This document shows, one piece after another, positions 10,922-64,000 of a DNA stretch of 64,000 nt (position 1 is the first letter of the stretch; the number at the start of each line of letters is the position of its first letter). Below the pieces are notes generated by a model. It was not told the DNA's origin and searched no databases. It saw nothing but the letters and a program-made list of their open reading frames with translations. A program made the position numbers and the translations under genes. Source of the stretch: a virus. Taxonomy: Duplodnaviria; Heunggongvirae; Uroviricota; Caudoviricetes. The stretch lies in the IMG/VR virus record IMGVR_UViG_2861084961_000001; one strand, 5' to 3'.

Positions 10922-11995
10922 ATGGCAAAAGGAAAATCCGCACTGGCACTTGCTCTGAAAAAGAAAATCGGTAGCAACGACGAAATTCAGAAAGTAACTC
11001 ATTGGATTGACACAGGCTTTCCTCCGTTAAACAAAGCTATTTCCGGTCGTTACGATGGCGGTTTCCCATGTGGTCGTATCGTCGAAGTATTCGGGCCGCC
11101 AAGCGCGGGGAAAACTTTTTTGGCAACGGCAGCAATGATCTCCGCTCAGAAACAAGATGGCCTGGCGGTATTCCTCGATCATGAGAACAGTTTTGACGTT
11201 GGCCTGGCTGTCGCCAATGGTCTGAACGCAGATGAGGATGACGGCCAGTGGGTATACAAGCAGCCTGATACCTTCGAAGACTCTGTAGAGTTGATCGGCA
11301 CAATACTTAAATTGGTACGTGATGAAGAGCTTATCCCTGAATCAGCACCTATCTGTATCGTGGCTGACTCACTTGCGTCTATGGTTCCGAACTCCAAAGC
11401 CGAGAAGTTCGAAAAGATGGCTGAAGGCACTGCCAAAGACAAAGATCAGCTAAACATGAACGACAATACGGCGCTGGCTCGTGCAACGAGTGCGAACTTC
11501 CCCACTCTGGCTTTGTGGGCACGCAAATACAACGCCTGCATCATCTTCTTGAATCAGGTTCGCACAAAAATCGGTGTAATGTTTGGCGACCCTACTACGT
11601 CACCAGGCGGCGATTCACCGAAGTTTTACGCTTCTGTGCGCATCCGTCTCGGTGCATCGGTGATGAAGGATGGTAAAGAGAAGATCGGTCAGGACGTAGG
11701 CGCAGAGTGCATCAAAAACAAAGTTGCACCACCGTATGGCAAATGCACCTGGAAATTCTACTTCGATCCTACTCGTGGCCTCGACGTTATCGAGTCGCTC
11801 GTCGAGTACATGCTGGAAGAAGGATACCTGCCAAAGAACGCCAGCGGTCGAGTAGAAATTGGTGACAAGAAATACACCAAATCACAGATCGTCGAGATGT
11901 ATCGGGAGAAGCCACTAGCTGAAATCATTGCAGCTTTACAGGCAATCGACGACCGGAGAGCAAAAGATACCCCCACCGAGTCAGTAGAAGGGTAA
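10922..11995 (+). CDS. RecA-like recombinase
   Basis: Walker A GPPSAGKTFLA, 357 aa, RecA-like layout. Confidence 0.6.
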   Translation: MAKGKSALALALKKKIGSNDEIQKVTHWIDTGFPPLNKAISGRYDGGFPCGRIVEVFGPPSAGKTFLATAAMISAQKQDGLAVFLDHENSFDVGLAVANGLNADEDDGQWVYKQPDTFEDSVELIGTILKLVRDEELIPESAPICIVADSLASMVPNSKAEKFEKMAEGTAKDKDQLNMNDNTALARATSANFPTLALWARKYNACIIFLNQVRTKIGVMFGDPTTSPGGDSPKFYASVRIRLGASVMKDGKEKIGQDVGAECIKNKVAPPYGKCTWKFYFDPTRGLDVIESLVEYMLEEGYLPKNASGRVEIGDKKYTKSQIVEMYREKPLAEIIAALQAIDDRRAKDTPTESVEG

Positions 11996-48227: not shown

Positions 48228-49328
48228 TCACACTGCGCGGAATGCGATTTCGCCAGGTATTACTTCACCTTGCCAATACATTTGGGCAGCAACGCGATCT
48301 GCGAGGTCACGATAAATAGCCGTAAATTCGCTATCTGGACGACTAATAACGGTTGGTGTTCCGTTATCCAGATCCTCACGAAGAGAGATATGAAGTGGCA
48401 TTTGGCCTAACAACTGCGTGTTGTATTTCTCGGCCAGTTTCTGTGCGCCACCGGTGCCAAAAATTGGCTCGTGATGACCGCAGTTACTGCAAATATGCAC
48501 ACTCATGTTTTCGACGATACCTAGTACCGGCACTTCGACTTTTTCGAACATCACAATGCCTTTCTTCGCATCGATCAGCGCGATGTCTTGCGGCGTAGTT
48601 ACCACAACCGCACCAGTTACAGGAATGTTCTGCGCCAGCGTCAATTGAATATCACCAGTGCCCGGCGGCATATCGAGAACGAGATAGTCCAGATCAGGCC
48701 ACAGTGTTTCCTGCAACATCTGCATCAGCGCCTTGCTGGCCATCGGTCCACGCCACACCATTGCATTGTCGTCGGTGACCAGATAACCAATAGAGTTGGT
48801 TGCCAGGCCATGAGACATGATAGGTGCCATGTGAGTACCGTCCGGTGAGGTTGGACGTTGGTTTTCCGCACCCAGCATGGTTGGAATTGATGGACCGTAG
48901 ATATCGGCATCCAAAATACCAACTTTCGCACCTTCAGCAGCCAACGCCAGTGCCAAGTTTACTGCTGTGGACGATTTGCCTACACCGCCCTTGCCTGAGC
49001 TGACGGCGATGATGTTCTTAACGCCATTAATGCCTGGTTGGTTTTTGACGCGCTTAAGCGTGGCAATGTTGTACGACAGCTTCCAGTCGATAGCCTTTGC
49101 GCCAGTGATACGGAGCAGATCACCACTACATTGCTCTTTCAGGTCTTCAAAAGGCTTATTCCACACGAAAGGCATGATTAGTTCGACATGCAGTGTGTCA
49201 TCCATCAACGCAACATGGTGTAACGCTTTAAGCGTAGTCAGGTTGTGCTTCAGGGTTGGGTGCTGAAAATTAGCCAGCGTACCGGCTACCATTGCTCTCA
49301 GGGCATCCGGCGATTTGGACTCGCTCAT
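48228..49328 (-). CDS. mrp: Mrp/ApbC Fe-S cluster carrier ATPase, intact, host-type
   Basis: 366 aa; deviant Walker A SSGKGGVGKSSTAVNLA, CxxC motif; near-identical to recalled E. coli Mrp. Confidence 0.9.
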   Translation of the reverse strand: MSESKSPDALRAMVAGTLANFQHPTLKHNLTTLKALHHVALMDDTLHVELIMPFVWNKPFEDLKEQCSGDLLRITGAKAIDWKLSYNIATLKRVKNQPGINGVKNIIAVSSGKGGVGKSSTAVNLALALAAEGAKVGILDADIYGPSIPTMLGAENQRPTSPDGTHMAPIMSHGLATNSIGYLVTDDNAMVWRGPMASKALMQMLQETLWPDLDYLVLDMPPGTGDIQLTLAQNIPVTGAVVVTTPQDIALIDAKKGIVMFEKVEVPVLGIVENMSVHICSNCGHHEPIFGTGGAQKLAEKYNTQLLGQMPLHISLREDLDNGTPTVISRPDSEFTAIYRDLADRVAAQMYWQGEVIPGEIAFRAV

Positions 49329-49485
49329 CCCGTCTCCTTTATTTTAATTTGCGCAATTGTCGCCTTGTAGTGTACTCCAGCTACGACATTTAATCATTTA
49401 TGAGAAATGCTGTTATCACATGGCAGACATAAGGCCATTTTGTTACTATCAAGCCCCTTTTCACTACAAAGAAGTAATGCCTACT

Positions 49486-51519
49486 ATGACCCAAGTCGCG
49501 AAGAAAATTCTGGTGACGTGCGCGCTGCCGTACGCTAACGGCTCAATCCACCTCGGCCATATGCTGGAGCACATCCAGGCTGATGTCTGGGTTCGTTACC
49601 AGCGAATGCGCGGCCACGAGGTTAATTTCATCTGTGCCGACGATGCCCACGGTACGCCGATCATGCTGAAAGCACAGCAGCTTGGTATCACACCGGAACA
49701 GATGATTGGCGAAATGAGCCAGGAACACCAGACTGATTTCGCAGGCTTTAACATCAGCTATGACAACTATCACTCGACGCACAGCGAAGAGAACCGCCAG
49801 CTGTCTGAGCTTATCTATACTCGCCTGAAAGAGAACGGTTTTATTAAAAACCGCACTATCTCTCAGTTGTACGACCCGGAAAAAGGCATGTTCCTGCCGG
49901 ATCGTTTTGTGAAAGGCACCTGTCCGAAATGTAAAGCGCCAGATCAATACGGCGATAACTGTGAAGTTTGCGGCGCGACCTACAGCCCGACTGAACTGAT
50001 TGAGCCGAAATCGGTAGTTTCTGGCGCTACGCCGGTAATGCGTGATTCTGAACACTTCTTCTTTGATCTGCCCTCTTTCAGCGAAATGTTGCAGGCATGG
50101 ACCCGCAGCGGTGCGTTGCAGGAGCAGGTGGCAAACAAAATGCAGGAGTGGTTTGAATCTGGTCTGCAACAGTGGGATATCTCCCGCGACGCACCTTACT
50201 TCGGTTTTGAAATTCCGAACGCGCCGGGTAAATATTTCTACGTCTGGCTGGACGCACCGATTGGCTACATGGGTTCCTTCAAGAATCTGTGCGACAAGCG
50301 CGGCGACACTACCAGCTTCGATGAATACTGGAAGAAAGACTCCACCGCCGAGCTGTACCACTTCATCGGTAAAGATATCGTTTACTTCCACAGCCTGTTC
50401 TGGCCTGCCATGCTGGAAGGCAGCAACTTCCGCAAGCCGACCAACCTGTTTGTTCACGGCTATGTGACGGTGAACGGCGCGAAGATGTCCAAGTCTCGCG
50501 GCACCTTTATTAAAGCCAGCACCTGGTTGAATCATTTTGACGCTGACAGCCTGCGTTACTACTACACCGCCAAACTGTCTTCGCGCATTGATGATATCGA
50601 TCTCAACCTGGAAGATTTCGTTCAGCGCGTGAATGCCGATATCGTGAACAAAGTGGTTAACCTGGCCTCCCGTAATGCGGGCTTTATCAACAAACGTTTT
50701 GACGGCGTGCTGGCAAGCGAACTGGCTGACCCGCAACTGTACAAAACCTTTACTGATGCCGCTGAAGTGATTGGCGAAGCATGGGAAAGCCGCGAATTTG
50801 GTAAAGCTATCCGTGAAATCATGGCATTGGCTGACCTGGCTAACCGCTATGTCGATGAACAGGCTCCGTGGGTGGTGGCGAAGCAGGAAGGACGCGATGC
50901 CGATCTGCAGGCGATTTGCTCTATGGGCATTAACCTGTTCCGCGTGCTGATGACTTACCTGAAACCGGTACTGCCGAAACTGACAGAACGTGCGGAAGCA
51001 TTCCTCAATACGGAACTGACCTGGGATGGCATCCAGCAACCGCTGCTGGGCCATAAAGTGAATCCGTTCAAAGCACTGTATAACCGTATCGACATGAAAC
51101 AGGTGGAAGCATTGGTGGAAGCGTCTAAAGAAGAAGTGAAAGCTACTGCCGCGCCAGTTACTGGCCCGCTGGCAGACGACCCGATTCAGGAAACCATCAC
51201 CTTTGACGACTTTGCCAAAGTTGACCTGCGCGTGGCGCTGATCGAAAACGCAGAGTTTGTTGAAGGTTCTGACAAACTGCTGCGCCTGACGCTGGATCTC
51301 GGCGGTGAAAAACGTAATGTCTTCTCAGGCATCCGTTCCGCTTATCCAGACCCACAGGCACTGATTGGCCGTCACACCATTATGGTGGCTAACCTGGCTC
51401 CGCGTAAAATGCGTTTCGGTATCTCCGAAGGCATGGTGATGGCTGCTGGCCCCGGCGGGAAAGACATCTTCCTGTTAAGCCCGGATGCTGGTGCTAAACC
51501 TGGCCACCAGGTTAAGTAA
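49486..51519 (+). CDS. metG: methionyl-tRNA synthetase, intact, host-type
   Basis: [29 protein letters not shown] (HIGH-type), KMSKS, C-terminal tRNA-binding domain; start at ATG 49486 inside track ORF 49357..51519. Confidence 0.95.
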
Positions 51520-52869: not shown

Positions 52870-53660
52870 TTGTTTATACAAACAAGAAAACAACTGAATA
52901 ACAGATCAACGAAACGTCAACGCTTTCACCCGATTTGGTCTAAAAAATTGACGTTTTCACACATCACTTCTTATACCCGCAATCCTACGCAGCAGACAGC
53001 GCCACAGCGTCCAATTTTCACCACAGACGACCCAACACACCACCAACAAAAACACACGCTCAAAATCGCTCTCGTTGCGTTACATAACCATATAAACAAC
53101 TTATTTTCAGGCATAACAAAACAACTAAATAACACATACGCAATTCCCAAAAACAACCAACCTCTTTATTGCAGGCTACCGAAAAGACCCACCTCTTCTT
53201 CCCAGGCTACCGGACAACCAACCTAACTTTCACAGGCAATCCGAAAACATTCATGCGCGCGATACCCACGACACGCCATTCCCCAAACAGCGAAGAAACA
53301 CCTGAACCACCGAAACCCCAACGAAGCCTGTAACCGCAAGGATTCTCTCAATCCCAAAAGACACGAAACATAACAATCACGGGAAACGCCATTACCCAAT
53401 ACACGAATAACTACAAAAGCCTTTCACACACTCCAGACAAACAACTCAAACACAATAACGAAAGGAATCGCCCACCTGCCATTACTCCATACACGGAGAA
53501 GAACAAGCACCAAAACGACGAGAACATCCCACAGAAGAACCACCGCAAAACTAACGAAACCATTTACACCGACAGAGAGAACAACACACCCAATTCACCA
53601 ACAGAATTAGTCGCCGTATAGAACGTTCTGGAAGGAGTGAGCATTAACGTCCATAGAGAG
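52870..53660. repeat. strand-asymmetric CA-rich non-coding region containing CAGGCTACCG-type direct repeats
   Basis: Plus strand almost free of G or T runs for about 800 bp; only ORF there is low-complexity; repeats near 53170, 53200, 53235. Confidence 0.45.
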
Positions 53661-53779
53661 GTTGAGACAGATAAAACACGAAGAAAACACAACATGTATA
53701 GCGAAGAAGCCAGGTATGTATAAGTGGGGAGGGAAGGAGGGGTGTCGCCTCCTTTTTCGTATTTATTCAACTCCTGATT

Positions 53780-53960
53780 TTATCCCCCGTAACACCCCTA
53801 CGGTCAGCCTTCGGTCCATACAGGGAAAGGCTGCATCCCGCTACAGAAACGGCTGGGTTGCCTTTGGGGAACGGCTGGAGGTTTTCAGGGAAACGGTCGA
53901 GTTGCCTTTGTGGATTTCGGGAAAAGGCTCGATGCCGGTTCAGGAACGGCGGCGTACCGG
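53780..53960. repeat. array of about six GGGAAACGGCT-like direct repeats spaced 22-30 bp
   Basis: CAGGGAAAGGCTG, CAGAAACGGCTGG, GGGAACGGCTGG, GGGAAACGGTCG, GGGAAAAGGCTCG, CAGGAACGGCGG. Confidence 0.45.
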
Positions 53961-54286
53961 TATAGCGAGAGGGAGAGTTGCGGCTACCCACCTGTAATGT
54001 GCGGGAAGAAGAGAGGCGCTCACGTGCAGGCGGACTTGCTTACCGCTGGATTCCCTCTGAATGCCCAGCTACAGCGTAATTGTGCCAGACAGCCAACGGG
54101 TCACGATCGATTTCAGTAGGTTTTCGGGGAGAGGATTATTCTGTCCACCAGCCACCTTCGGCCACTAAATCAGAATAATGTAAAAAGTGTACTCGGTACT
54201 GAACCTGAAAACTCACTGCCAAAACCACATTCACCGGAATAAAATCCTTTTTCGCCTGTGCGTTATTGCGATAATAACACCAACAA

Positions 54287-54301
54287 GAAAACATGTTGTT
54301 T
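54287..54301. promoter_or_regulatory. motif B palindrome (GAAAACATGTTGTTT)
   Basis: Upstream of 54314 gene. Confidence 0.4.
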
Positions 54302-54313
54302 AAGGATTGCTTT

Positions 54314-54643
54314 ATGTTTGCACATATCGACATCAACCAAATTAAGAAATTGACTCAAAAAGAGTTTGACCAGTTCTATGAGCTGGAAGGTTGGTCTTCC
54401 ACTCTGATTAATTCAAGATGGGTGCTGGAGCTGATGACTCGTGATGACGCACCTGCTTTGATGATTAGCGACCTGGGTGAAGATGCTGACTTTATGGATA
54501 TGAGCGAATTTTGTGTGGACACATACAACCGCAGCCAGAAGTACTACTTCACATGCGATAGCGAGAATGACGTGATTTCTAAGGTCTATCTTCACCTCGT
54601 CCAGCATTGGGACGTTCAGGAGTTTCTTGAGGTATTCGCGTAA
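54314..54643 (+). CDS. hypothetical protein (109 aa)
   Basis: ATG 54314 inside track ORF 54293..54643; motif-B site upstream. Confidence 0.4.
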   Translation: MFAHIDINQIKKLTQKEFDQFYELEGWSSTLINSRWVLELMTRDDAPALMISDLGEDADFMDMSEFCVDTYNRSQKYYFTCDSENDVISKVYLHLVQHWDVQEFLEVFA

Positions 54644-54769
54644 ACCAATCAAAGCCAGCATTGCTGGCTTAATTTCTCTATAGCCGCAGGGAGGAACCTG
54701 CATATCGCTCATGCACCTGATCAATATGCTTTGTAGCCGTTTTCTTACTGGTATTATTTACGCCATTGA

Positions 54770-54783
54770 GAAAACAAGTTGTT
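54770..54783. promoter_or_regulatory. motif B palindrome (AAAACAA-G-TTGTTT)
   Basis: Upstream of 54796 gene. Confidence 0.45.
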
Positions 54784-54795
54784 TACGGAGTTGTG

Positions 54796-55107
54796 ATGAA
54801 AAAATCATTGGTTCTTGGTCTGGACAAAGACCAGAAGAGAAAAGAGAAGCCTGCACTGGTTGCTCAATTAACTTTGCTGGACATCGTTGCCAATGGAACC
54901 TCTATTCGTCTGTTCCGTGAAACAGCGGTGTCTTTCGATAAAAACACCTTTACTCGTTATGTAATGAATGTTCGTCGCCAGCGTGGAAAAGGCTGGGTGG
55001 CATTTCAAAGAATGTGGCCGGAACATCAGCTCGAACTGGCTTTGATGGAAGTTAACCGCGTGGCCCAGCAAGAAATTCAGAGAGCATCAGTGATGGCAAT
55101 AGCCTGA
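54796..55107 (+). CDS. hypothetical basic protein (103 aa)
   Basis: ATG 54796 inside track ORF 54766..55107; motif-B site upstream. Confidence 0.4.
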   Translation: MKKSLVLGLDKDQKRKEKPALVAQLTLLDIVANGTSIRLFRETAVSFDKNTFTRYVMNVRRQRGKGWVAFQRMWPEHQLELALMEVNRVAQQEIQRASVMAIA

Positions 55108-55140
55108 TAATGTGCAAGTGGTAATTAGTCGACAGTACGA

Positions 55141-55171
55141 CAGCCCCGCCATCCTTACGGGGCTTTTTTGT
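55141..55171 (+). terminator. rho-independent terminator CAGCCCCG-loop-GGGGCT plus T6
   Basis: Stem plus TTTTTT. Confidence 0.6.
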
Positions 55172-55233
55172 ATTGTAAGTACATACCTACGACTATAAAA
55201 TAGAAAAATAACCAATACACTACGGAGAGTGAA

Positions 55234-55629
55234 ATGACCGTTAAACGCGAAAAACTGACAGTTGATGTTTACTATGCCTCTGAAACTGCCGAAGGTAAGA
55301 ATGTGGCAAAAATCACCGTTGTTACGTACAACACCGAAACTGGTGCCGAAGTCCAGGCCAGTACGATCGTGCGTAAAGGTGATGCCTCCGGCGGCGAGTA
55401 CGCGACTCAATACCAGTCCATTCTCGATGCAACTGACCCACTGCTGCTGAAAATCGAGAACTACTTCCGCCAGGTTGATGAAGAGGTGTTTGAAACCATG
55501 ATGAGTATGGTTAATTCCGTATTCACCTCCAGCCTGAACACTAGCACCACCTGGATTGGCCAGTACGGTCTGCGCATTACCTCCGGCATTCCTGCTGACA
55601 CCTTAATCCCTGAAAGCGTATTCGCTTAA
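55234..55629 (+). CDS. hypothetical protein (131 aa)
   Basis: ORF track; RBS GGAGAG. Confidence 0.45.
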   Translation: MTVKREKLTVDVYYASETAEGKNVAKITVVTYNTETGAEVQASTIVRKGDASGGEYATQYQSILDATDPLLLKIENYFRQVDEEVFETMMSMVNSVFTSSLNTSTTWIGQYGLRITSGIPADTLIPESVFA

Positions 55630-55638
55630 TCCTCTTTA

Positions 55639-55664
55639 AATGGCGCGTAAACCGCGCCATTTTC
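55639..55664 (+). terminator. rho-independent terminator AATGGCGCG-TAAAC-CGCGCCATT plus TTC
   Basis: Perfect 9-bp stem. Confidence 0.55.
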
Positions 55665-55673
55665 TTATGCCCG

Positions 55674-55690
55674 ATAACAATTTGTTTTCT
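55674..55690. promoter_or_regulatory. motif B palindrome (AACAA-T-TTGTT)
   Basis: Upstream of 55747 gene. Confidence 0.4.
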
Positions 55691-55746
55691 GCCTTATCTG
55701 ATTTGTGAAAATGATTTCACTGAAGCAACTTAATAAGGAAACCATC

Positions 55747-56121
55747 ATGGGACTTGATATCTATATCGAGACGCAGCCTAAAAACGATCTGAATAACGAG
55801 GCATCCAGAAAGCGGGTTGCTTACTTCCGTAAGTTCAATGCGCTCGTTGGGTGGATGGAGCGCAACGTAGGTGAAGTCGAAAATTGTGAGCTTTTAGAAT
55901 TAACGATGAATGACATTTGTTTTCTGAAGGCTCATTTGATGCACATAAATGAAAGTAATTGCGAAGAGTACTTGCCTACCCGGGAAGGTTTTTTCTTCGG
56001 CAGTCAGGAGTACGATGAAGGTTACTGGCATGACGTGGATAAGCTGAAAAAACTTGTGGAAGACCTGATCATGAACCACGACTTTCACAATAACAGACTG
56101 ACCTTCTGCGCCTGGTGGTAA
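55747..56121 (+). CDS. hypothetical protein (124 aa)
   Basis: ATG 55747 inside track ORF 55705..56121. Confidence 0.4.
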   Translation: MGLDIYIETQPKNDLNNEASRKRVAYFRKFNALVGWMERNVGEVENCELLELTMNDICFLKAHLMHINESNCEEYLPTREGFFFGSQEYDEGYWHDVDKLKKLVEDLIMNHDFHNNRLTFCAWW

Positions 56122-56124
56122 ATA

Positions 56125-56268
56125 TGGGCGATTTCAAGAAACGCCTGAAGGAAAGAGCCGAGATGGTCAGAAAGCGAAACGCCTATTCTGTCATCAGATA
56201 CGCAAGGCAGTTTAGTCGCAACAACAAATCAGTTGAGGAAAAGATCCTTAGCGTAATCGGGCGATAAT
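56125..56268 (+). CDS. small basic ORF (47 aa)
   Basis: Read from sequence; followed by hairpin AAGACCACC-AGCAT-TGGTGGTCTT at 56273-56296. Confidence 0.25.
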
Positions 56269-56436
56269 TATTAAGACCACCAGCATTGGTGGTCTTAAAT
56301 GACCATCCTGTTTCCCGCAGGCTAAAAACACCAACCTCTTACCTCCAGGCAACCGACAAACCCACCTGTTCCCGTCAGGCTACCGCAACTTTCCACTTTG
56401 ACGCCTTATTCGTACAACGATAATTAACGCCAACAA

Positions 56437-56451
56437 GAAAACAATTTGTTA
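56437..56451. promoter_or_regulatory. motif B palindrome (GAAAACAATTTGTTA)
   Basis: Upstream of 56472 gene. Confidence 0.4.
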
Positions 56452-56471
56452 TTTACGATAAGGAATTAATC

Positions 56472-56954
56472 ATGAATTTTATCGCTACTGTAAACGCACC
56501 CGCACATGGCAATATCGCTGTAACGTTCTCTGACATTGAAAAACGAGTACTTGGTGCCTGGCGTCACAATGAGACGGTAGAACTGTCAGCACAAGAAAAA
56601 TGCATTATTGCACGCGACATCATTGGCAATCGTCGTTACTCGCGGGTATTTGAGAAAGCGTATGTGGTAAATTCTGGATTCGGAACGTTCGTCTTTCCGG
56701 TGCGCTCCGGGCGATTCTGCCAGTCCAAGCTGATTGAGTTCGCTACGCAGATTTCTGTCTGGATTAAAACTCAATCGTCGTTCAAATTTTCCGACGATGA
56801 AGCAGTATCGCAGGGGATGCGGATCGCCAACAATGCAATTAAATGCAAAAACATTACGTATACCGCTGGCGTTGATACATGGAAACTGTTTTGCGCTAAC
56901 TTTATGCTGAATGTATACGCAAGCAACCGCATCCACATCCTTGATGGCGTGTAA
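56472..56954 (+). CDS. hypothetical protein (160 aa)
   Basis: ORF track; motif-B site upstream; followed by hairpin AGGGCC-AGAAAC-GGCCCT. Confidence 0.45.
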   Translation: MNFIATVNAPAHGNIAVTFSDIEKRVLGAWRHNETVELSAQEKCIIARDIIGNRRYSRVFEKAYVVNSGFGTFVFPVRSGRFCQSKLIEFATQISVWIKTQSSFKFSDDEAVSQGMRIANNAIKCKNITYTAGVDTWKLFCANFMLNVYASNRIHILDGV

Positions 56955-57570
56955 CTGAGAAGAGGGCCAGAAACGGCCCTTTCTCTATAGCCACCAGCTG
57001 CCGCAGGGAAATTTTCAGAAACGGCGAGGAACGTATTCATGAGCCGACGGGAAACGGCCAGGATTTTTTTCGGGAAACGGCTGTATTCGCCTTTATGTAG
57101 AAAAACATCGGGAAGCTGGTGGAATCCAACCAGCGGTTGTCGGACAGGTGAGCGGGGAAAATTATAATGACTTTCGTCGCCTGAGACATCCAGATTTCTT
57201 TCGTAGCATAATCACATACGTGATTAAGTGGTGTGATTATGTGAAAAATCACGCGCACATAATACGCGATCGGACACAGAACAAAACAAAATGCCGATCC
57301 GCACCGACAAATACACGCTGATCACATAGCAAGACTAAAAGCCAATGATTAACCATACTCTATAGCGCAATATAACGCGCTTTAAGCGCGTTAATGTGTT
57401 AAGTAATGGGTATGTACTGGCGAGGATATAAAAGCGCGACTATGGCGTTATTTTGGCGCTTATTTTTATGTTGTTGGAGTGAGTTAAAGACAATAAATAA
57501 CGCGCCAATGATGGCGCGTTATGGTGGGAGTATTGGAAACGAAAAAAGCGCCCATAGTGGGCGCTCGATT

Positions 57571-57798
57571 TTATTTATGTAAACTGATTTCAAATCCCAT
57601 TTCTACGAACGCTTTTAACATTAAAAATATATCAGCGTCGTTCACGTCTGCTTTTTTTCGCTCCTGGTCGCTCAATAAGTCAATTTTGCGCGTCGTTTCA
57701 TCTATAAGCTCAACAGATCCAGCGTAACCAGCGATCCCAGCAATATCATTAACACAATATTCATTGTGGACGTTAACGCCAGCGATAAGAACAAACAT
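57571..57798 (-). CDS. hypothetical protein (75 aa)
   Basis: ORF track; followed on minus strand by hairpin AGCGCCCA-TAG-TGGGCGCT and T-run. Confidence 0.35.
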   Translation of the reverse strand: MFVLIAGVNVHNEYCVNDIAGIAGYAGSVELIDETTRKIDLLSDQERKKADVNDADIFLMLKAFVEMGFEISLHK

Positions 57799-58023: not shown

Positions 58024-58070
58024 TTTAAAGCTCCTTTAAAGCGCCCATAGTGGGCGCTTGATTCCATTAA

Positions 58071-58720
58071 TTACGCTTTGAAAGCATCAGCTAGATAATT
58101 GTAGAAATCATTCTTGATAAAGCGATATTGCTGCGTACCAGCTTTGGCGCTTCCCATTCCTTTGACTTTCTCAACAAGTCCAAGACGTTCGCAAAGATTG
58201 ATCAACTGGTTGGCTTGAGTATAGCCAGCGTCCAATTTAATTTCGCACGCTTTTTTAGCTTCATTCATCAAATCGAAAACAGCGCCATTAGTGAACGTGT
58301 CGATCTCGTCGTTAATCATATCGATTAAAGCGAATACACGAGATCCAGACATATCAGCGACGGAATAAACACATTTACCAGCTTTAATGGATTTAACCAG
58401 ATAAACCAGTTTTCCAGTGAATAACTATTAGTCATAGCATCACGGAAAAATACTTCTGGCGCTTGTTTGCTTGCTTTAATCGCATAGTAGAAAACAGAGC
58501 ATAATTTTTCGTCTTCTACAGCGTTTACAACGTTGTTGATGAAGTAAGCAAGTTTAGTGGTCGCAGCTTGCATATTTGCTTTGTCTGCTTTAGTGTGCGT
58601 ACCATTTTTATAATGTTCGTTATATGTTTGAGTTGCCAGATCTGCTTTTTCGCGCAGCTCGTCGGATACAATAGATGCAGCTTCAATGATGGACTTTTTA
58701 GAAATGATAATGTTAGCCAT
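58071..58720 (-). CDS. hypothetical protein (ORFs 58325..58720 and 58071..58352, probably one gene)
   Basis: ORF track; overlapping frames. Confidence 0.35.
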
Positions 58721-59001
58721 GATAATTTTTCCTTATGTAAATTTAAAATTTATTGTCGTTAGCGTCTTCGCTTTCGACGAGTTCAATTATCGATATGCGA
58801 AAAAAGATTGCAAGTATTTTTTTTAAATTTTTTGCAGGGATGAAAGTCCTAGAAATAAAAGCGAGATCGTCGAAGGTGTTCCCTAAATAAATAATCGATT
58901 CCGGCTTTCGACCTTATATATTTAGGTTGTTTGATTTATAGATATAAAGAAGTGATGTGAAAAATAATAACCGGACTTAGCCGGTTATTAACCTTATAGA
59001 T

Positions 59002-59310
59002 TTATTGAACAGACTCTACAGCCTTACGATTGGTGTCAAATAGCGCATCAACGAACTGTGCCGATGACTCGCTAGATTCGCAATCCAACATTGCCCGTTC
59101 TTCATTTGCCACTTTCTTACACAGTTCCACATTCTCACCTATCGCTTTTCCTGCTTTTACGGCTGCCGAAAATTGATACATGCAAACTGATACATTCTGA
59201 GATGTTGAGCACACGTCATTCATCAGCGACTGAATGACAGGCTTATAGTCCATTGCATTTGCTGCAACTGAGCAAAGTAAAAAAAATGGTGGTAACAATA
59301 TCGATTTCAT
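59002..59310 (-). CDS. secreted Cys-containing small protein with signal peptide
   Basis: MKSILLPPFFLLCSVAANA signal-like N-terminus. Confidence 0.4.
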   Translation of the reverse strand: MKSILLPPFFLLCSVAANAMDYKPVIQSLMNDVCSTSQNVSVCMYQFSAAVKAGKAIGENVELCKKVANEERAMLDCESSESSAQFVDALFDTNRKAVESVQ

Positions 59311-59353
59311 AACTCAAAAAGGCAAAATTCGCTCAACCCAATCGAACAAATAA

Positions 59354-59836
59354 CTATTTTTCTACCGTTCTCGACACGTAGTGTAACCTGACAAGCATCT
59401 GCGCCTGCTGACACCCCTCAATTTCACGGCCATCCGCCATGTACACTCTTATAGATTTGTTTGCTTTATAGGCTTGGTTGCAAATAGCAAAAAAATCGCG
59501 GCGTGATGGCCGATTATCGACATAATCAGGATGAACTGTTAATCGACCTTTGAAATCGTGAGCGATACTGTCAACCACACCTGATTCAATTGTACTAATG
59601 CGTTCAAGTGGGAGCCTTATACGATTTTCTTTGTCAAAAGGGGCTGGGCAAAGGTCAACTTTGTTACGAGATGGCATGAGGCCATAAACGTACATGCAAA
59701 ACGCCTGGCCATCTTCCAGAGTGGCCCTTACAGGAATTTGTTCTCTGCGCCAGAACATCAGTAGTTTTTCAACGTTAGTGTAATCTCGCGGCCAGAGTTC
59801 AGCTTGGATACCGTAGGTAATATCTTTGGTTGTCAT
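59354..59836 (-). CDS. hypothetical protein (160 aa)
   Basis: Internal ATG 59836 directly after the upstream stop inside track ORF 59354..59914. Confidence 0.4.
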   Translation of the reverse strand: MTTKDITYGIQAELWPRDYTNVEKLLMFWRREQIPVRATLEDGQAFCMYVYGLMPSRNKVDLCPAPFDKENRIRLPLERISTIESGVVDSIAHDFKGRLTVHPDYVDNRPSRRDFFAICNQAYKANKSIRVYMADGREIEGCQQAQMLVRLHYVSRTVEK

Positions 59837-59840
59837 GTCA

Positions 59841-60305
59841 TCACAGAGTTGTTGGCAGAATGTCGATGTCGCCAGAATTGCTGGTGAACACCCTGAACGC
59901 TTTTGTGTCTCCATTCTTCAGAGTCGTTTCTCGCTCTTGACGAGCGGGGTTTAGAGCACATAAACCTGCACCTTCAAGAGATGCACCCACAATTAATTCT
60001 CCGGCATTTAAATGGAAAGTCGCTTTTTCGCCTGTAGCCAGTTTTGCGACAGTTTCGCCGTTGATGAAAATGGAAGCATCACATCCAGCTCCTACAAAAC
60101 CTGTGTCTCTCATTACCACCAACGTAGCTGGCGCTGCGCTTTGATACTTGAACACTTTGGCCTGCGGTGCTGGTTTGGCGTCATGGATTGATATTGGGCG
60201 TGATTGGCACGCGGTAAGCATCAACACTGGTAACGTTAGTAGAGGGAGAAGCGAGTATTTCATGATAGTTTTAGAACAGAAAGTGAACAGTATGGGAGAC
60301 TTCAT
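59841..60305 (-). CDS. lipoprotein (lipobox LTAC), Gly/Ala-rich beta-type
   Basis: MKYSLLPLLTLPVLMLTAC signal with lipobox; RBS AGGGAGA before ATG 60305. Confidence 0.5.
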   Translation of the reverse strand: MKSPILFTFCSKTIMKYSLLPLLTLPVLMLTACQSRPISIHDAKPAPQAKVFKYQSAAPATLVVMRDTGFVGAGCDASIFINGETVAKLATGEKATFHLNAGELIVGASLEGAGLCALNPARQERETTLKNGDTKAFRVFTSNSGDIDILPTTL

Positions 60306-60331
60306 CTTTGTCTCCCTAATTGATAGCGTGA

Positions 60332-60610
60332 TTATTTTAATCTGCTTAATAGCGTTTCGAGATCTTCCTTTGTCATATTAGAGTTCTCATAGATACGCAT
60401 GATTTTCTCACGAGTCTTAGCGGAAGCCCCGACAGAAGATATAACCTTGTCAAAGTCGGCCATTGTCAATTGTTCCAGAATGGTATTTATGACTTCAGCC
60501 TTAGACATTTTGATATTTTTTTCTTTTAGTTTCACTTGAAACTTTCCAAGTTTGTCATTGGCCTTATCAGACAATGCTACCTGACAGTAAGTTGTTTTCT
60601 TTTCACTCAT
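60332..60610 (-). CDS. hypothetical protein (92 aa)
   Basis: ORF track. Confidence 0.4.
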   Translation of the reverse strand: MSEKKTTYCQVALSDKANDKLGKFQVKLKEKNIKMSKAEVINTILEQLTMADFDKVISSVGASAKTREKIMRIYENSNMTKEDLETLLSRLK

Positions 60611-60612
60611 AA

Positions 60613-62172
60613 CTAATCTCGTTTCAGAACCCCAAAATCGAATGCTCCATCAATAGGCAATACACCTTCTGCAAAGCCAGGTGTGGTGTCGATGATGTGT
60701 TTTCGCTCATAAGAGTGAGACAACAGGTATTTGTTGCTAATGTCAATGAAATCAGTGATAAAACACACGTTTGCCTGATTTTTTTTGGCTCGTAAGCCAC
60801 GACCGACACGCTGTCTCATTTCAACTTCTGCTTTCCCACCACCAGCAAGAATGACCGCACCAACGCTTGGCACATCAACACCAACATCCAGAATAGTCGA
60901 GCCTATTAAAACATCTATTTCACCAGACGCTAAACTGTTCAGCTTTGCTTGCCTTGTCGTCTGGTTAGATTCCCCATAGATGAAATCAACTCTAAGACCT
61001 GACTCCTTCATCATCTCCATCAGGATTTGCCCGTGGCGTTTAAGACGAACCAGAGTCATGCAGTTGAGTGAATGTTGCTTATAAAGCAATGCCTCGCGCA
61101 CTATGGCCTCGTTACGTCCCAAATTATACACGATCCCCAACTGATAAGCCTTTTGGTAGGCGGTGCTCATACCAACTCTAAAATTGAGGTGTTTGTTGGC
61201 AAGTTCGGCCTTGATTCTGGCCTCGTCTGGTTTGTAGGCAACTTTATGATAAAGGAAGTACGGCTTTGCCAGAATGCCTCGATCAATCAGGTACTTTTCT
61301 GTGACTTTAATTTCAATTCGCCCGGCCACCGCCATCAGGCGCATGTTGGCTTCCGTCGAATCCTTCATGAACGGCGTGGCTGTAAGCGCCAGACGATAGT
61401 CTGCGTTCACACATAATCTGGCGATGTCATAGAAATTTGAGCCTGAAGACTCATGCGCCTCTTCCAGAATAAGAAGAGAGACACTTGAAAGGAAGCGTTT
61501 CACCAACTCCCGACGTTTGAGGTGGTAGCTCTTCTTATCTGGAGTTGCATCGCGTGGTGGTTCTTCAAGGAAACTTGCCAGAGTTTGAACTGTAGCGACG
61601 TTGATATGTCGTGATACCTGGAACTCACCCGAGCCAATTACTCCAACCTTTTGGTCTTTTAACCACGGTTCGCCATTTTCGGCGCGGTAGTCGATGGATC
61701 TCTGGAAGTTTTCGGCCATCTGAAACATCAGAACAGAGCGGGTTGTTAAAAATAATGTCATTCGACCGATACGTGCAGCTGCTTTGCAGGCAACATTAGA
61801 TTTCCCGCCACCAGTAGCGATCTGCGCAATCATCATTCCCTCGCGAACTAGCGTTTCCACAGTCTGATCCTGATACGCATAATCAGGATTGTATGGGAAT
61901 GGGTTAACCGCCGGATTTGGCTTTCCAAGCGCCGGGGCTTTGTCTTTGCGGATATGAACACATTTGATGCCCGCCTTGTTCAAGTTCGCCGCTACAGGCT
62001 TGGCAAAGCCAGCAGGGAACGAGTTTTTACTCCAGTTGAACATTGTGCTTGTGCCCTTCCAGTCGCCAGTCTCGACTTCGTAGCTCAACATCTGTTGCAC
62101 CAGTTGCTTTACCTTGTCATCTGCGCCAGAAATAAGCGCATTAACTGCGTTAGATACAATCCGAACAGTCAT
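60613..62172 (-). CDS. superfamily-2 DNA/RNA helicase
   Basis: Motif I ATGGGKS, motif II LEEAH, motif III TATP, motif VI QRVGRGLR; 519 aa intact. Confidence 0.7.
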   Translation of the reverse strand: MTVRIVSNAVNALISGADDKVKQLVQQMLSYEVETGDWKGTSTMFNWSKNSFPAGFAKPVAANLNKAGIKCVHIRKDKAPALGKPNPAVNPFPYNPDYAYQDQTVETLVREGMMIAQIATGGGKSNVACKAAARIGRMTLFLTTRSVLMFQMAENFQRSIDYRAENGEPWLKDQKVGVIGSGEFQVSRHINVATVQTLASFLEEPPRDATPDKKSYHLKRRELVKRFLSSVSLLILEEAHESSGSNFYDIARLCVNADYRLALTATPFMKDSTEANMRLMAVAGRIEIKVTEKYLIDRGILAKPYFLYHKVAYKPDEARIKAELANKHLNFRVGMSTAYQKAYQLGIVYNLGRNEAIVREALLYKQHSLNCMTLVRLKRHGQILMEMMKESGLRVDFIYGESNQTTRQAKLNSLASGEIDVLIGSTILDVGVDVPSVGAVILAGGGKAEVEMRQRVGRGLRAKKNQANVCFITDFIDISNKYLLSHSYERKHIIDTTPGFAEGVLPIDGAFDFGVLKRD

Positions 62173-62217
62173 AAACCTCTTTCCTTAGTGCCTTTTGTAT
62201 GTTATTTGGCTATTATA

Positions 62218-62237
62218 ATAAGTAAGTGATTACTTAG
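62218..62237. promoter_or_regulatory. motif A palindrome (ATAAGTAA-GTGA-TTACTTAG) in the divergent helicase / ParB-like promoter region
   Basis: Between 62172 (minus-strand start) and 62255 (plus-strand start). Confidence 0.4.
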
Positions 62238-62254
62238 TGGATTGTAGCAATAAA

Positions 62255-62935
62255 ATGGATGTAAAAATCACGATTTTGCAGGTTGATGTTGCCAACCTTC
62301 GCCCGAATACCTGGAACACCAATTCGGTTGGTGCGCAGAATTTTGAAAAACTGAAAGGTTCTATCGAAAAATTGGGCTTTTTTAAGCCAATTTTGGCTCG
62401 TGAACTTGAAGATGGATTTTTTGAAATCCTCGGCGGCGAACATCGCTGGCGTGCCGCTATTGAGCAAGGAATTTCAATGGTTCCAGTGCTTTCTGTGGGC
62501 AAAATTAGCGATGTCGTAGCTAAACAGATGTCACTGGTGGACAACGAGCGATACGGTGAAGACGACCAAATCGCATTGCAACGCTTCATTGAAGAAATTC
62601 AGTCAGAACTTGACTATCAACTGTCTGAAATCGCCCCGTATGACGACGAAATCTCGATGGTTTTAGCAAAAGAGGCGGCAATCGACCTTGAAGCACTGGA
62701 GGCGTTGTCTCGTGGTAGTGATGAGCCTGTCGATACCGACAAACGAGAGAAAACCGAACGTGTGGGGGCGGAACATCAGACCATGCGCTTCAAAGTAACT
62801 TTCGATGCGTCAGATCGTGTTGCAGAAACCATAAAAAACATCATCAAAGAGCAGGCTATTAACACCGGTAATGAAATGGAGAACGCTGGTGAGGCTCTGG
62901 TGTGGCTGGTCGACTACTACAAGGAGCGTATGTAA
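62255..62935 (+). CDS. ParB/Srx-fold nuclease-domain protein
   Basis: LRPNTWNTN...GFFKPILARELEDGFFEILGGEHRWRAAIEQGISMVPV; ATG 62255 within track ORF 62237..62935. Confidence 0.55.
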   Translation: MDVKITILQVDVANLRPNTWNTNSVGAQNFEKLKGSIEKLGFFKPILARELEDGFFEILGGEHRWRAAIEQGISMVPVLSVGKISDVVAKQMSLVDNERYGEDDQIALQRFIEEIQSELDYQLSEIAPYDDEISMVLAKEAAIDLEALEALSRGSDEPVDTDKREKTERVGAEHQTMRFKVTFDASDRVAETIKNIIKEQAINTGNEMENAGEALVWLVDYYKERM

Positions 62936-63602
62936 TGACCAAAAAGTTTGAAATCGTATATCGCGACCCGGCAGATCTTATTCCCTATGAGATGAATGCC
63001 AAAAAGCATGATGAACAGCAGATCCGAGATCTGGCCGCAGCCATTAAAAGCGCGGATTTGACCAGCCAATTACGGTCGATAAGAACGACGTAATTATTAC
63101 TGGCCACGGCCGCCGTGAGGCTGCAATTTTTGCTGGACTTGAGCGCGTACCGGTTATTGTTCGCGATGATCTCAGTGATGACGAGGTTCGTGCGAAGCGC
63201 CTTGAAGATAACCGACTTGCCAGCATTGATTACGATGCAATTAAGCTACAGAAAGAACTTGAGTCGCTTGTTCTGGACGATATCGAGGTTTTCGGCTTTG
63301 AAGAGCGGGAGTTGAATGTTCTCGTTGGCAGCATGACAGAAGAAATGGACACCGACTCGCTAGTTATCGATCTGGGCGAAGAAACTAAACGACAGAAGGA
63401 TGAACACACCGAGATCAGTCGTGAAGTTGCAGCGGAAGAAGTACGTGTTGTCGACGTATTGGGCTTTAAAACGCTCCCTGCTGGCTCTGCCATTGTTGTT
63501 GGTGATTTGCTTGCCCACATGGAAGAAATGACGGGAGAAAGCGGGGTAGACGCATTTGTGGCATATGCGGAGAAGATCTCTTCCGGGGAGATGGCTGCAT
63601 GA
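62935..63602 (+). CDS. second ParB-like domain protein (frameshift near 63050)
   Basis: IVYRDPADLIPYEMNAKKHDEQQIRDLAAAIKSA then, in the other frame, FDQPITVDKNDVIITGHGRREAAIFAGLERVPVIV. Confidence 0.5.
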
Positions 63603-64000
63603 GCAAATACATCATCAACGTATCGTTTCAGACACGCGTAAATAAAACCACGCGCACGTTGGAAATCGCTGAGTCGTTCGGGCTTGGCCTGGACGAAAAA
63701 GAGTGGACGCTTTACGACAATCTGGAGCTGGAAGTGAAGCAGGCGATGTGGTGTACATCACCGGCCAATCCGGTTCAGGTAAATCCGTTGTGTTGCGCGA
63801 GTTGCAACGCCAGATGAAGGATGAAGGGCTTTCTGTAGCTTCTATTGATGACTTTACCTTCGATAATGAGGTTAACGTCATTGACCAACTGGGCAAAACT
63901 ACCAGTGATGCGCTTGGGTTGTTATCTATGGCAGGTCTGAACGATGCATATCTGTTTGTTCGCAAGCCTTCTGAAATGTCAGACGGTCAGAAATATCGTC
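63599..64000 (+). CDS. P-loop ATPase (ABC-like), partial at window end, frameshift near 63745
   Basis: Walker A GQSGSGKS and SDGQKYR in the frame following ORF 63599..63817. Confidence 0.4.

Follow-up and report, generated by a model that had tools for sequence, protein, structure and literature searches.

Paired ParB-like proteins and a predicted split ABC-GNAT enzyme encoded ahead of the terminase genes in an SSU5-like phage-plasmid

The stretch analyzed here, referred to as the window, comprises 64,000 nucleotides of a tailed virus (Caudoviricetes; IMG/VR record IMGVR_UViG_2861084961_000001), and the locus in question occupies its last part, positions 62,218 to 64,000. A preliminary description based on the letters and their translated open reading frames had reported two consecutive ParB-like genes, the second with an arginine-rich GHGRREAA block, followed by a P-loop ATPase with the motifs GQSGSGKS and SDGQKYR that runs off the window. 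Domain searches and motif mapping place all of these elements where they had been reported, with match scores well outside what chance would give:

62255..62935, plus strand: ParB1, 226 residues, ParB-N domain (ParB/Srx NTPase fold) with the motif GGEHRWRAA; Pfam ParB_N, E 1e-12
62935..63602, plus strand: ParB2, ParB-N domain, 222 residues in relatives, GHGRREAA at 63102-63125; Pfam ParB_N, E 1.3e-8
63599..64000 (off the window end), plus strand: soluble ABC-type ATPase, N-terminal ~134 of 221 residues; Pfam ABC_tran, E 5.8e-13 on the intact orthologue

The start of ParB2 overlaps the stop of ParB1 by 1 nt, and the start of the ATPase gene overlaps the stop of ParB2 by 4 nt (ATGA); ParB1 has an alternative GTG start at 62237. 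The P-loop ATPase can be assigned more narrowly to the ABC-type nucleotide-binding domains, with SDGQKYR (63979-63999) as the ABC signature motif, a point that had been overlooked. The portion inside the window extends from Walker A (GQSGSGKS, 63763-63786) through the Q-loop to the signature, the remaining motifs being read from orthologues. The full set (Walker A, Q-loop, signature SDGQ(K/R)YR, Walker B DEF, D-loop and H-loop) is kept without variation in six distant phages at 53-57% identity. A match of the ATPase to CbiA/ParA is weak (19 bits, below the cut-off of 25.4).

A megablast search with positions 62000-64000 returned matches in 689 plasmid records and 9 phage records, the top match being Escherichia coli plasmid ESBL242 (NZ_KP792123, 99.8% identity), with Escherichia phage Cyrano at 98.5% and Salmonella phage SSU5 at 83% identity. 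On the strength of these matches we assign the window to an SSU5-like phage-plasmid, a low-copy element with an IncFIB-type RepA. Comparison with ESBL242 also revealed that, although all three genes are present, ParB2 and the ATPase gene are not intact reading frames in the window, each being split by a 1-nt deletion across which the earlier translation had evidently been read. The alignment contains one substitution and two 1-nt deletions: a run of five A in ESBL242 reads as four at 63046-63049, breaking the ParB2 frame, and a GGG run reads as GG at 63742-63743, breaking the ATPase frame. In 15 of the 15 plasmid matches listed, the 2001 query bases align to 2003 record bases, with both extra bases present. 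Over the longer span 58784-64000 there are eight substitutions and five indels, all five of which are deletions in homopolymer or TA runs:

58914, 59347, 59413, 63046-63049 and 63742-63743: deletions of 1-2 nt relative to ESBL242, in homopolymer or TA runs

Since all indels are deletions in such runs and the two extra bases are present in the plasmids, the frameshifts in ParB2 and the ATPase gene are most likely sequencing or assembly errors and not marks of pseudogenes. Deletions confined to such runs are the signature of systematic assembly error, and further apparent frameshifts in the window are suspect. The remaining blocks of the window show 2-16 gap openings each against ESBL242.

Extension of the locus through its relatives revealed neither ParA nor parS downstream; GNAT, small-protein and terminase genes are found there instead. 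In ESBL242 and Cyrano the operon continues from the ABC gene (221 residues) to genes for proteins of 296, 88 and 210 residues, the large terminase, the portal and the major capsid protein. The gene for the 296-residue protein overlaps the ABC gene by 4 nt, and overlaps within the operon are 1-4 nt. The 296-residue protein folds as a GNAT and was identified as a GNAT-fold acyltransferase. A sequence search of its family against the PDB gave no real match; the Joint Genome Institute (JGI) name for family members is "ABC-type ATPase with predicted acetyltransferase domain". The 88-residue protein yields weak matches of the winged helix-turn-helix (HTH) type. The 210-residue protein, p210, belongs to PHROG 867 ("DNA binding domain"), gave no real match to the PDB by sequence search, and is probably the small terminase. 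Judged by this gene order, the window ends inside a predicted phage operon of five genes (for ParB1, ParB2, ABC, GNAT and a small protein resembling an HTH), of which it contains the 5' part and which immediately precedes the terminase genes. Of 771 plasmid records, 719 carry an intact copy of the module.

When 1.84 billion representative sequences were searched with a profile, 891 relatives were identified, many of those listed being 430-560 residues long with a GNAT part beginning at about residue 200. Pfam searches and sequence inspection confirmed that these are single chains in which an ABC domain is followed by a GNAT domain. The fused chains and the separate phage genes have idiosyncratic motifs in common, namely AEAFGLG, G(D/Q)SGSGKS, LSDGQKYR, DEF..LDR, ATTH, FHY(K/R), PKYRGIGL and YNPF.EKAGM, and on the basis of these shared motifs we assign the ATPase of the window as one half of a split ABC-GNAT enzyme. 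Further domains occur on some of these chains. An N-terminal ParB-N-like domain was detected on P0197 with 26.9 bits, using a profile built without P0197 (E 2.5e-10 as a single target, corresponding to 2.5e-4 when scaled to a database of a million sequences). In P0205 a complete family-B DNA polymerase (PolB) is fused to ABC-GNAT within a Prim-Pol/RecA/FEN replication module; this fusion was found in 35 blocks of the contig collection and amounts to 1260 residues on metagenomic viral contigs L012-L014 (gene at 10001-13783 of L012). P0166 carries an intein inside its ABC domain and P0155 a TFIIB repeat. The identifiable fusion partners of ABC-GNAT are all DNA-associated.

ParB1 and ParB2 are lineage-specific paralogues of equal layout. 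In the intact orthologues the Pfam ParB_N match spans only residues 9-97 of ParB1 and 23-90 of ParB2, each protein containing a GxxRxxA-like arginine motif (GGEHRWRAA and GHGRREAA, respectively), and Pfam searches at E <= 0.01 detected neither an HTH nor any other second domain in the C-terminal ~120 residues of either protein. Both score below the cut-off of the ParB/RepB/Spo0J family TIGR00180 (41.3 bits for ParB1 and 43.1 for ParB2; cut-off 58.45). ParB1 corresponds to PHROG 723, with orthologues at 31-39% identity in five distant phages, and ParB2 to PHROG 930 (E 1e-112). ParB2 is also similar to the ParB domain of ParB-methyltransferase fusions (PHROG 498, E 2e-31; PADLOC MTase_II, E 3e-17). 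Known defense systems were considered as well; PADLOC returned weak or partial matches only (the ParB part of MTase_II, mad3/mad8 and PtuA), which we did not take as membership.

The arrangement is not confined to phage-plasmids. A divergent helicase gene followed by ParB, ParB, ABC, zero to three small inserts, GNAT, a small gene, putative small terminase, large terminase and portal is the order found in Pseudomonas phage nickie, where tRNA genes lie near the module, in Rhizobium phage RHph_N1_15 and in Stenotrophomonas phage BUCTxx99. The same order from helicase to portal is present in a prophage beside flagellar motor genes on a 3.27-Mb contig and on a 295-kb Ectothiorhodospira contig. Among 37 ABC-GNAT locus clusters in IMG/VR, 17 are of the split type; in each of these a pair of ParB genes lies upstream, and in 15 the pair is directly adjacent. 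A ParB gene followed by a fused ABC-GNAT, again upstream of the large terminase, is also found in unrelated phages, namely Leptospira phage LE4 and Gordonia phage Axumite. Streptococcus prophage 315.4 (L017:3354-5355) harbors, before its terminase, genes for a ParB-N protein, an ABC ATPase, an 89-residue fragment with faint GNAT similarity (a degraded GNAT) and an ASCH-domain protein, the last of which we take to be a candidate reader or eraser of N4-acylcytosine-type marks; its single ParB is nearer to ParB2 (E 3e-25) than to ParB1 (E 3e-7). In the Mu-like phage phiE255 an ABC-GNAT gene and a formyltransferase gene follow the tail-fiber genes, and no ParB accompanies them; phage Mu has mom at the equivalent position. 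A Formyl_trans_N gene directly follows the fused ABC-GNAT in both Axumite (gene 3, L016:1805-2449) and phiE255 (gp30, L018:5044-5655), with E values of 1e-8 and 3e-21. The recurrence of this pair in two unrelated phages hints at a two-step modification. The database label of Axumite gene 3 is "tRNA-methyltransferase".

The clearest indication of a biochemical context comes from the Gordonia phages of the genus Sourvirus, whose gene-1 ParB proteins are orthologous (55-66% identity) and whose terminases are 72-81% identical. Between these two genes, Sour harbors DpdA together with QueC/D/E and FolE, while CaiB harbors TET/JBP-type oxidoreductases and a kinase, the TET/JBP-type genes being counted among "nucleotide modification enzymes" in the genome announcement (PMC9302106). 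In Axumite the same interval holds ABC-GNAT and the Formyl_trans_N protein. With three alternative cargos between an orthologous ParB and the terminase, ABC-GNAT is thus interchangeable in Sourvirus with two recognized classes of DNA-modification cassette.

The preliminary description had suggested a DNA-modification or nuclease system rather than a partition locus. Of these, modification is favored by the comparative evidence, because the module is conserved in phages that are not plasmids, has a GNAT partner, occurs as ABC-GNAT, ParB-ABC-GNAT and PolB-ABC-GNAT fusions, and is swapped with DpdA and TET/JBP cassettes, while a nuclease finds no specific support. Direct observation covers which genes are present, how they are ordered and overlap, that their catalytic motifs are intact, the GNAT fold, the fusions, and the contexts both conserved and exchanged. 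Taking these together, we lean with modest confidence toward an ATP-driven acyltransferase, assisted by ParB, that would modify the DNA of the phage ahead of packaging. We infer DNA as the substrate, as well as the roles of ATP and of the ParB proteins and the biological purpose, along the following lines. The module would be a nucleic-acid modification machine that works after replication and on the DNA of the phage itself, its GNAT subunit transferring an acyl group from acyl-CoA to a DNA base. The ABC ATPase would be the obligate partner of the GNAT, with ATP binding and hydrolysis gating or driving access to the substrate. The two ParB-N paralogues, having no recognizable HTH, would serve as nucleoside triphosphate (NTP)-binding, DNA-engaging accessory factors, clamps or activators that keep the enzyme on double-stranded DNA or switch it on there, as DpdB does for DpdA and ParB176 for a phage thymine dioxygenase, two ParB-fold partners of DNA-modifying enzymes that are known from experiment. 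Packaging of the modified DNA by the adjacent terminase would follow, and the purpose may be evasion of host restriction or defense, or the marking of phage DNA.

A more specific version of this proposal is offered as a tentative and considerably less probable idea. The DNA of phage-plasmids of the SSU5/pHCM2/pMT1 type may contain an undescribed N-acyl base, for example N4-acetyl-deoxycytidine, made when a heteromeric, NTP-gated ParB1/ParB2 clamp loads the ABC-ATPase-driven GNAT onto replicated DNA just before packaging. N4-acetyl-deoxycytidine is named as the candidate by analogy with the ATP-dependent formation of N4-acetylcytidine in tRNA by TmcA, and the ASCH neighbor in the Streptococcus prophage fits. 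Some ASCH proteins are N4-acylcytosine amidohydrolases.

Coupling of a GNAT with an ABC ATPase has a precedent in prediction, as Iyer, Zhang, Burroughs and Aravind (2013), in the account given in section 3.4.7 of PMC7824862, earlier predicted such a pair to make an acyl modification, one that is uncharacterized, of a base in DNA. The present proteins are homologous motif for motif to that COG2401-type system and occur in the same viral and DNA-associated contexts, but differ in being encoded by separate genes, at times with small inserts, and in being accompanied by two paralogous ParB-N genes instead of one or none. For the ParB component, it has been reported that a phage ParB protein without a DNA-binding domain activates a T-dioxygenase on double-stranded DNA (PMC13229309), and that fusions of the ParB-CTPase fold with enzymatic domains, acetyltransferases included, are frequent (PMC12704722). 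The resemblance to the 5mYOX176/ParB176 pair (PMC13229309) lies in Sourvirus, where an orthologous ParB precedes either TET/JBP genes or ABC-GNAT; the partner here is a predicted ATP-dependent acyltransferase and not an Fe/2-oxoglutarate dioxygenase, and there are two ParB paralogues rather than one. Similarly, the DpdA/DpdB system of 7-deazaguanine DNA modification (PMC10164549) is linked through the DpdA cassette behind an orthologous ParB in Sour, but its chemistry is base exchange, as opposed to the acyl transfer proposed here, and DpdB combines a motif of the DGQQR type with a C-terminal domain that is large and helical, whereas ParB1 and ParB2 have GxxRxxA-type motifs and short C-terminal regions. 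At the sequence level, the layout of ParB1 and ParB2 (an NTPase domain and a C-terminal part with no detected HTH, beside a putative DNA-modifying enzyme) is consistent with those of DpdB and the 5mYOX-associated ParB. With Mom of phage Mu, a GNAT-fold enzyme that modifies adenine in DNA, nothing specific is shared in sequence or structure beyond the common fold, and Mom works without an ATPase or ParB partner. Stenotrophomonas phage DLP3, whose DNA resists restriction enzymes, belongs to another lineage lacking ABC-GNAT and was not used as support.

Several points weigh against an ATP-driven DNA acyltransferase at this locus. That DNA is the substrate is deduced from context alone, and no experimental study of any ABC-GNAT family member was found in the searchable literature. 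The GNAT gene lies beyond the window end, its presence in this genome being deduced from relatives that are 97-99.8% identical. ParB is not supported as a universal partner, given that 20 of the 37 viral ABC-GNAT clusters, all of the fused type, have no ParB-N gene in the retrieved sequence, which spans up to 6 kb to either side of the match. The AlphaFold2 model of ParB1 is unusable (predicted local distance difference test, pLDDT, of 40), its alignment containing near-identical homologues only, so that the statement on the HTH refers to sequence searches. Finally, in Sourvirus it is the ParB gene that stays constant by the terminase while the cargo varies, which would also fit a role of ParB in packaging.

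Such a role can be extended to the whole module, as a DNA-packaging accessory complex. Its ParB-N proteins, alone or together with the ABC ATPase, would recognize the packaging site, make it ready, or link replicated DNA to the terminase, and the GNAT would act as a regulator, for instance through acetylation of a protein of packaging or of the nucleoid. Apart from phiE255, all lineages examined have the module upstream of the large terminase gene with only small genes in between, and in Sourvirus gene 1, at the end of the genome, is invariably ParB, followed by varying genes up to the terminase. Many metagenomic ABC-GNAT genes, moreover, are found within ~1.5 kb of a contig end, and Terminase_6N is the commonest Pfam family among the neighbors of fused-type genes (4 of 85 proteins scanned, 12 loci). 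We nevertheless consider such a complex improbable, because a separate candidate small terminase, p210, is encoded between the module and the large terminase, the ABC-GNAT of phiE255 stands away from the packaging genes and without ParB, and the PolB fusions put ABC-GNAT in replication modules. The Sourvirus slot is otherwise filled by recognized DNA-modification enzymes, and a ParB activator has been demonstrated for enzymes of the TET/JBP type (PMC13229309).

The acyl acceptor could instead be RNA or protein, the module then being a tRNA cytidine acetyltransferase resembling TmcA/NAT10 or a Rac-like acetyltransferase that acts on host proteins during takeover. TmcA combines a P-loop ATPase with a GNAT, an architecture like that of the present module, and the usual substrates of GNAT enzymes are proteins, small molecules or RNA. 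Consistent with this possibility, a methionyl-tRNA synthetase-like gene is present in the window, tRNA genes lie near the nickie module, one protein encoded near a fused ABC-GNAT gave a match to the helicase domain of NAT10/TmcA, and an ASCH gene follows the module in Streptococcus prophage 315.4. The ATPase is, however, of the ABC type and not the helicase-type module of TmcA, the identifiable fusions and fixed partners (ParB-N, DNA polymerase B, TFIIB repeat) are all DNA-associated, and in Sourvirus the exchange is with DNA-modification cassettes. Acylation of RNA or protein therefore appears unlikely to us as the function of the module.

Database records label the ParB proteins "chromosome partitioning protein ParB", which raises the question of an atypical partition or maintenance system in which they would be centromere-binding proteins and the ABC ATPase would stand in place of ParA. 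The phage-plasmid is of low copy number and has a RepA of the IncFIB type, neither the window nor the annotation of its relative shows a canonical parAB, and Yersinia pestis plasmids also keep the module. The ParB-N NTPase fold and the GxxRxxA-like arginine motif in both proteins are likewise features of canonical ParABS. Unlike that system, the locus lacks ParA, an HTH_ParB domain and any ParA-interaction motif, both ParB proteins fall below the family cut-off, and the ATPase is of an ABC type that is fused to GNAT elsewhere. The search for ParA covered the open reading frames of the window over 42-64 kb and, for the rest, the annotation of the relative. In agreement with the preliminary description, it yielded no ParA-type partner, the sole ParA/MinD-like reading frame being the following:

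48228-49328, minus strand: Mrp/ApbC/NUBPL-type iron-sulfur (Fe-S) cluster carrier ATPase, 366 residues; PF10609, E 2e-102 ("MinD" in the annotation of phage Cyrano)

The suggested link of the ParB proteins to the GGGAAACGGC repeats found no support. The window is enriched in repeats of this type, with 10 matches of no more than 1 mismatch where 2.8 are expected. They occur at 53381-57081, with clusters at 53381-53942 and 57049-57081, and further upstream; they lie 5-9 kb or more upstream of the operon, with none in or beside it. Furthermore, partition is unlikely since the gene order is kept in phages of other hosts that are not plasmids and in a chromosomally embedded prophage, and the operon runs into the terminase genes. 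The locus is thus, with high confidence, not a ParABS partition system, a claim that is much firmer than the positive assignment of function, and the atypical form with an ABC ATPase is very unlikely. The label of ABC transporter ATP-binding subunit given in many records, for which the Pfam ABC_tran match and the transporter nucleotide-binding domains among the best PDB sequence matches speak, can be practically discarded, since no permease or substrate-binding gene occurs in any neighborhood examined and the ATPase is GNAT-fused in relatives.

To the left, the locus adjoins a divergent helicase gene across a short intergenic region:

60613..62172, minus strand: UvsW/DEAD-box-type helicase, 519 residues; Pfam ResIII, DEAD and Helicase_C
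62173..62254: divergent intergenic region between helicase and ParB1, 82 bp, presumed from its sequence to be the promoter region of the rightward operon

This position of the helicase is kept in loci L001, L003, L004, L005, L008 and L009, but in the Leptospira, Gordonia and Streptococcus phages examined it is not beside ParB/ABC-GNAT, and despite the conserved adjacency it is probably outside the module. A scan of 61900-64000 for consensus promoters and for terminators found nothing above chance.

Elsewhere in the window, a methionyl-tRNA synthetase-like gene (49357-51519, plus strand) stands head to head with the Mrp/ApbC-type gene, an unusual auxiliary pair for a phage-plasmid. Two sets of three tandem ~30-nt units (ACCnACCT...CAGGCTACCG), 3.1 kb apart at 53150-53246 and 56296-56389 among small open reading frames, look like iteron or operator arrays. 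A hairpin element (AAAGCGCCCATAGTGGGCGCT with an A/T-rich tail) is present in two copies that are 88% identical, at 57545-57578 and 58038-58071, 493 nt apart; these are probably repeated intrinsic terminators flanking small genes. At window position ~11113-11123, the junction of two alignment blocks, ~1.3 kb of ESBL242 is missing within a gene annotated as LAGLIDADG homing endonuclease (L007:15375-17714), a difference that may reflect the presence or absence of an intein or homing element.

The cassette is apparently intact in more than 700 sequenced enterobacterial plasmids from Klebsiella, E. coli, Enterobacter, Salmonella and Yersinia pestis, and cultured phages that infect several proteobacterial hosts carry it too; cultures exist of SSU5, Cyrano and phages related to them. 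The module is thus widespread, mis-annotated as "chromosome partitioning protein" and "ABC transporter", and belongs to a computationally predicted DNA-acylation kind. Should the modification reading prove wrong, the corrected annotation, neither partition nor transporter, would keep its use. An N-acyl base installed with the aid of a ParB clamp would constitute the first characterized ATP-dependent DNA acyltransferase pathway, and could affect the sequencing and base-calling of these clinically common elements. DNA acylation by the module, if true, would add a new chemical class to the known phage DNA modifications, would be the third instance, distinct in mechanism, in which a ParB-fold protein has been repurposed to partner a DNA-modifying enzyme, and could account for the evasion of host restriction or defense by phage-plasmids.

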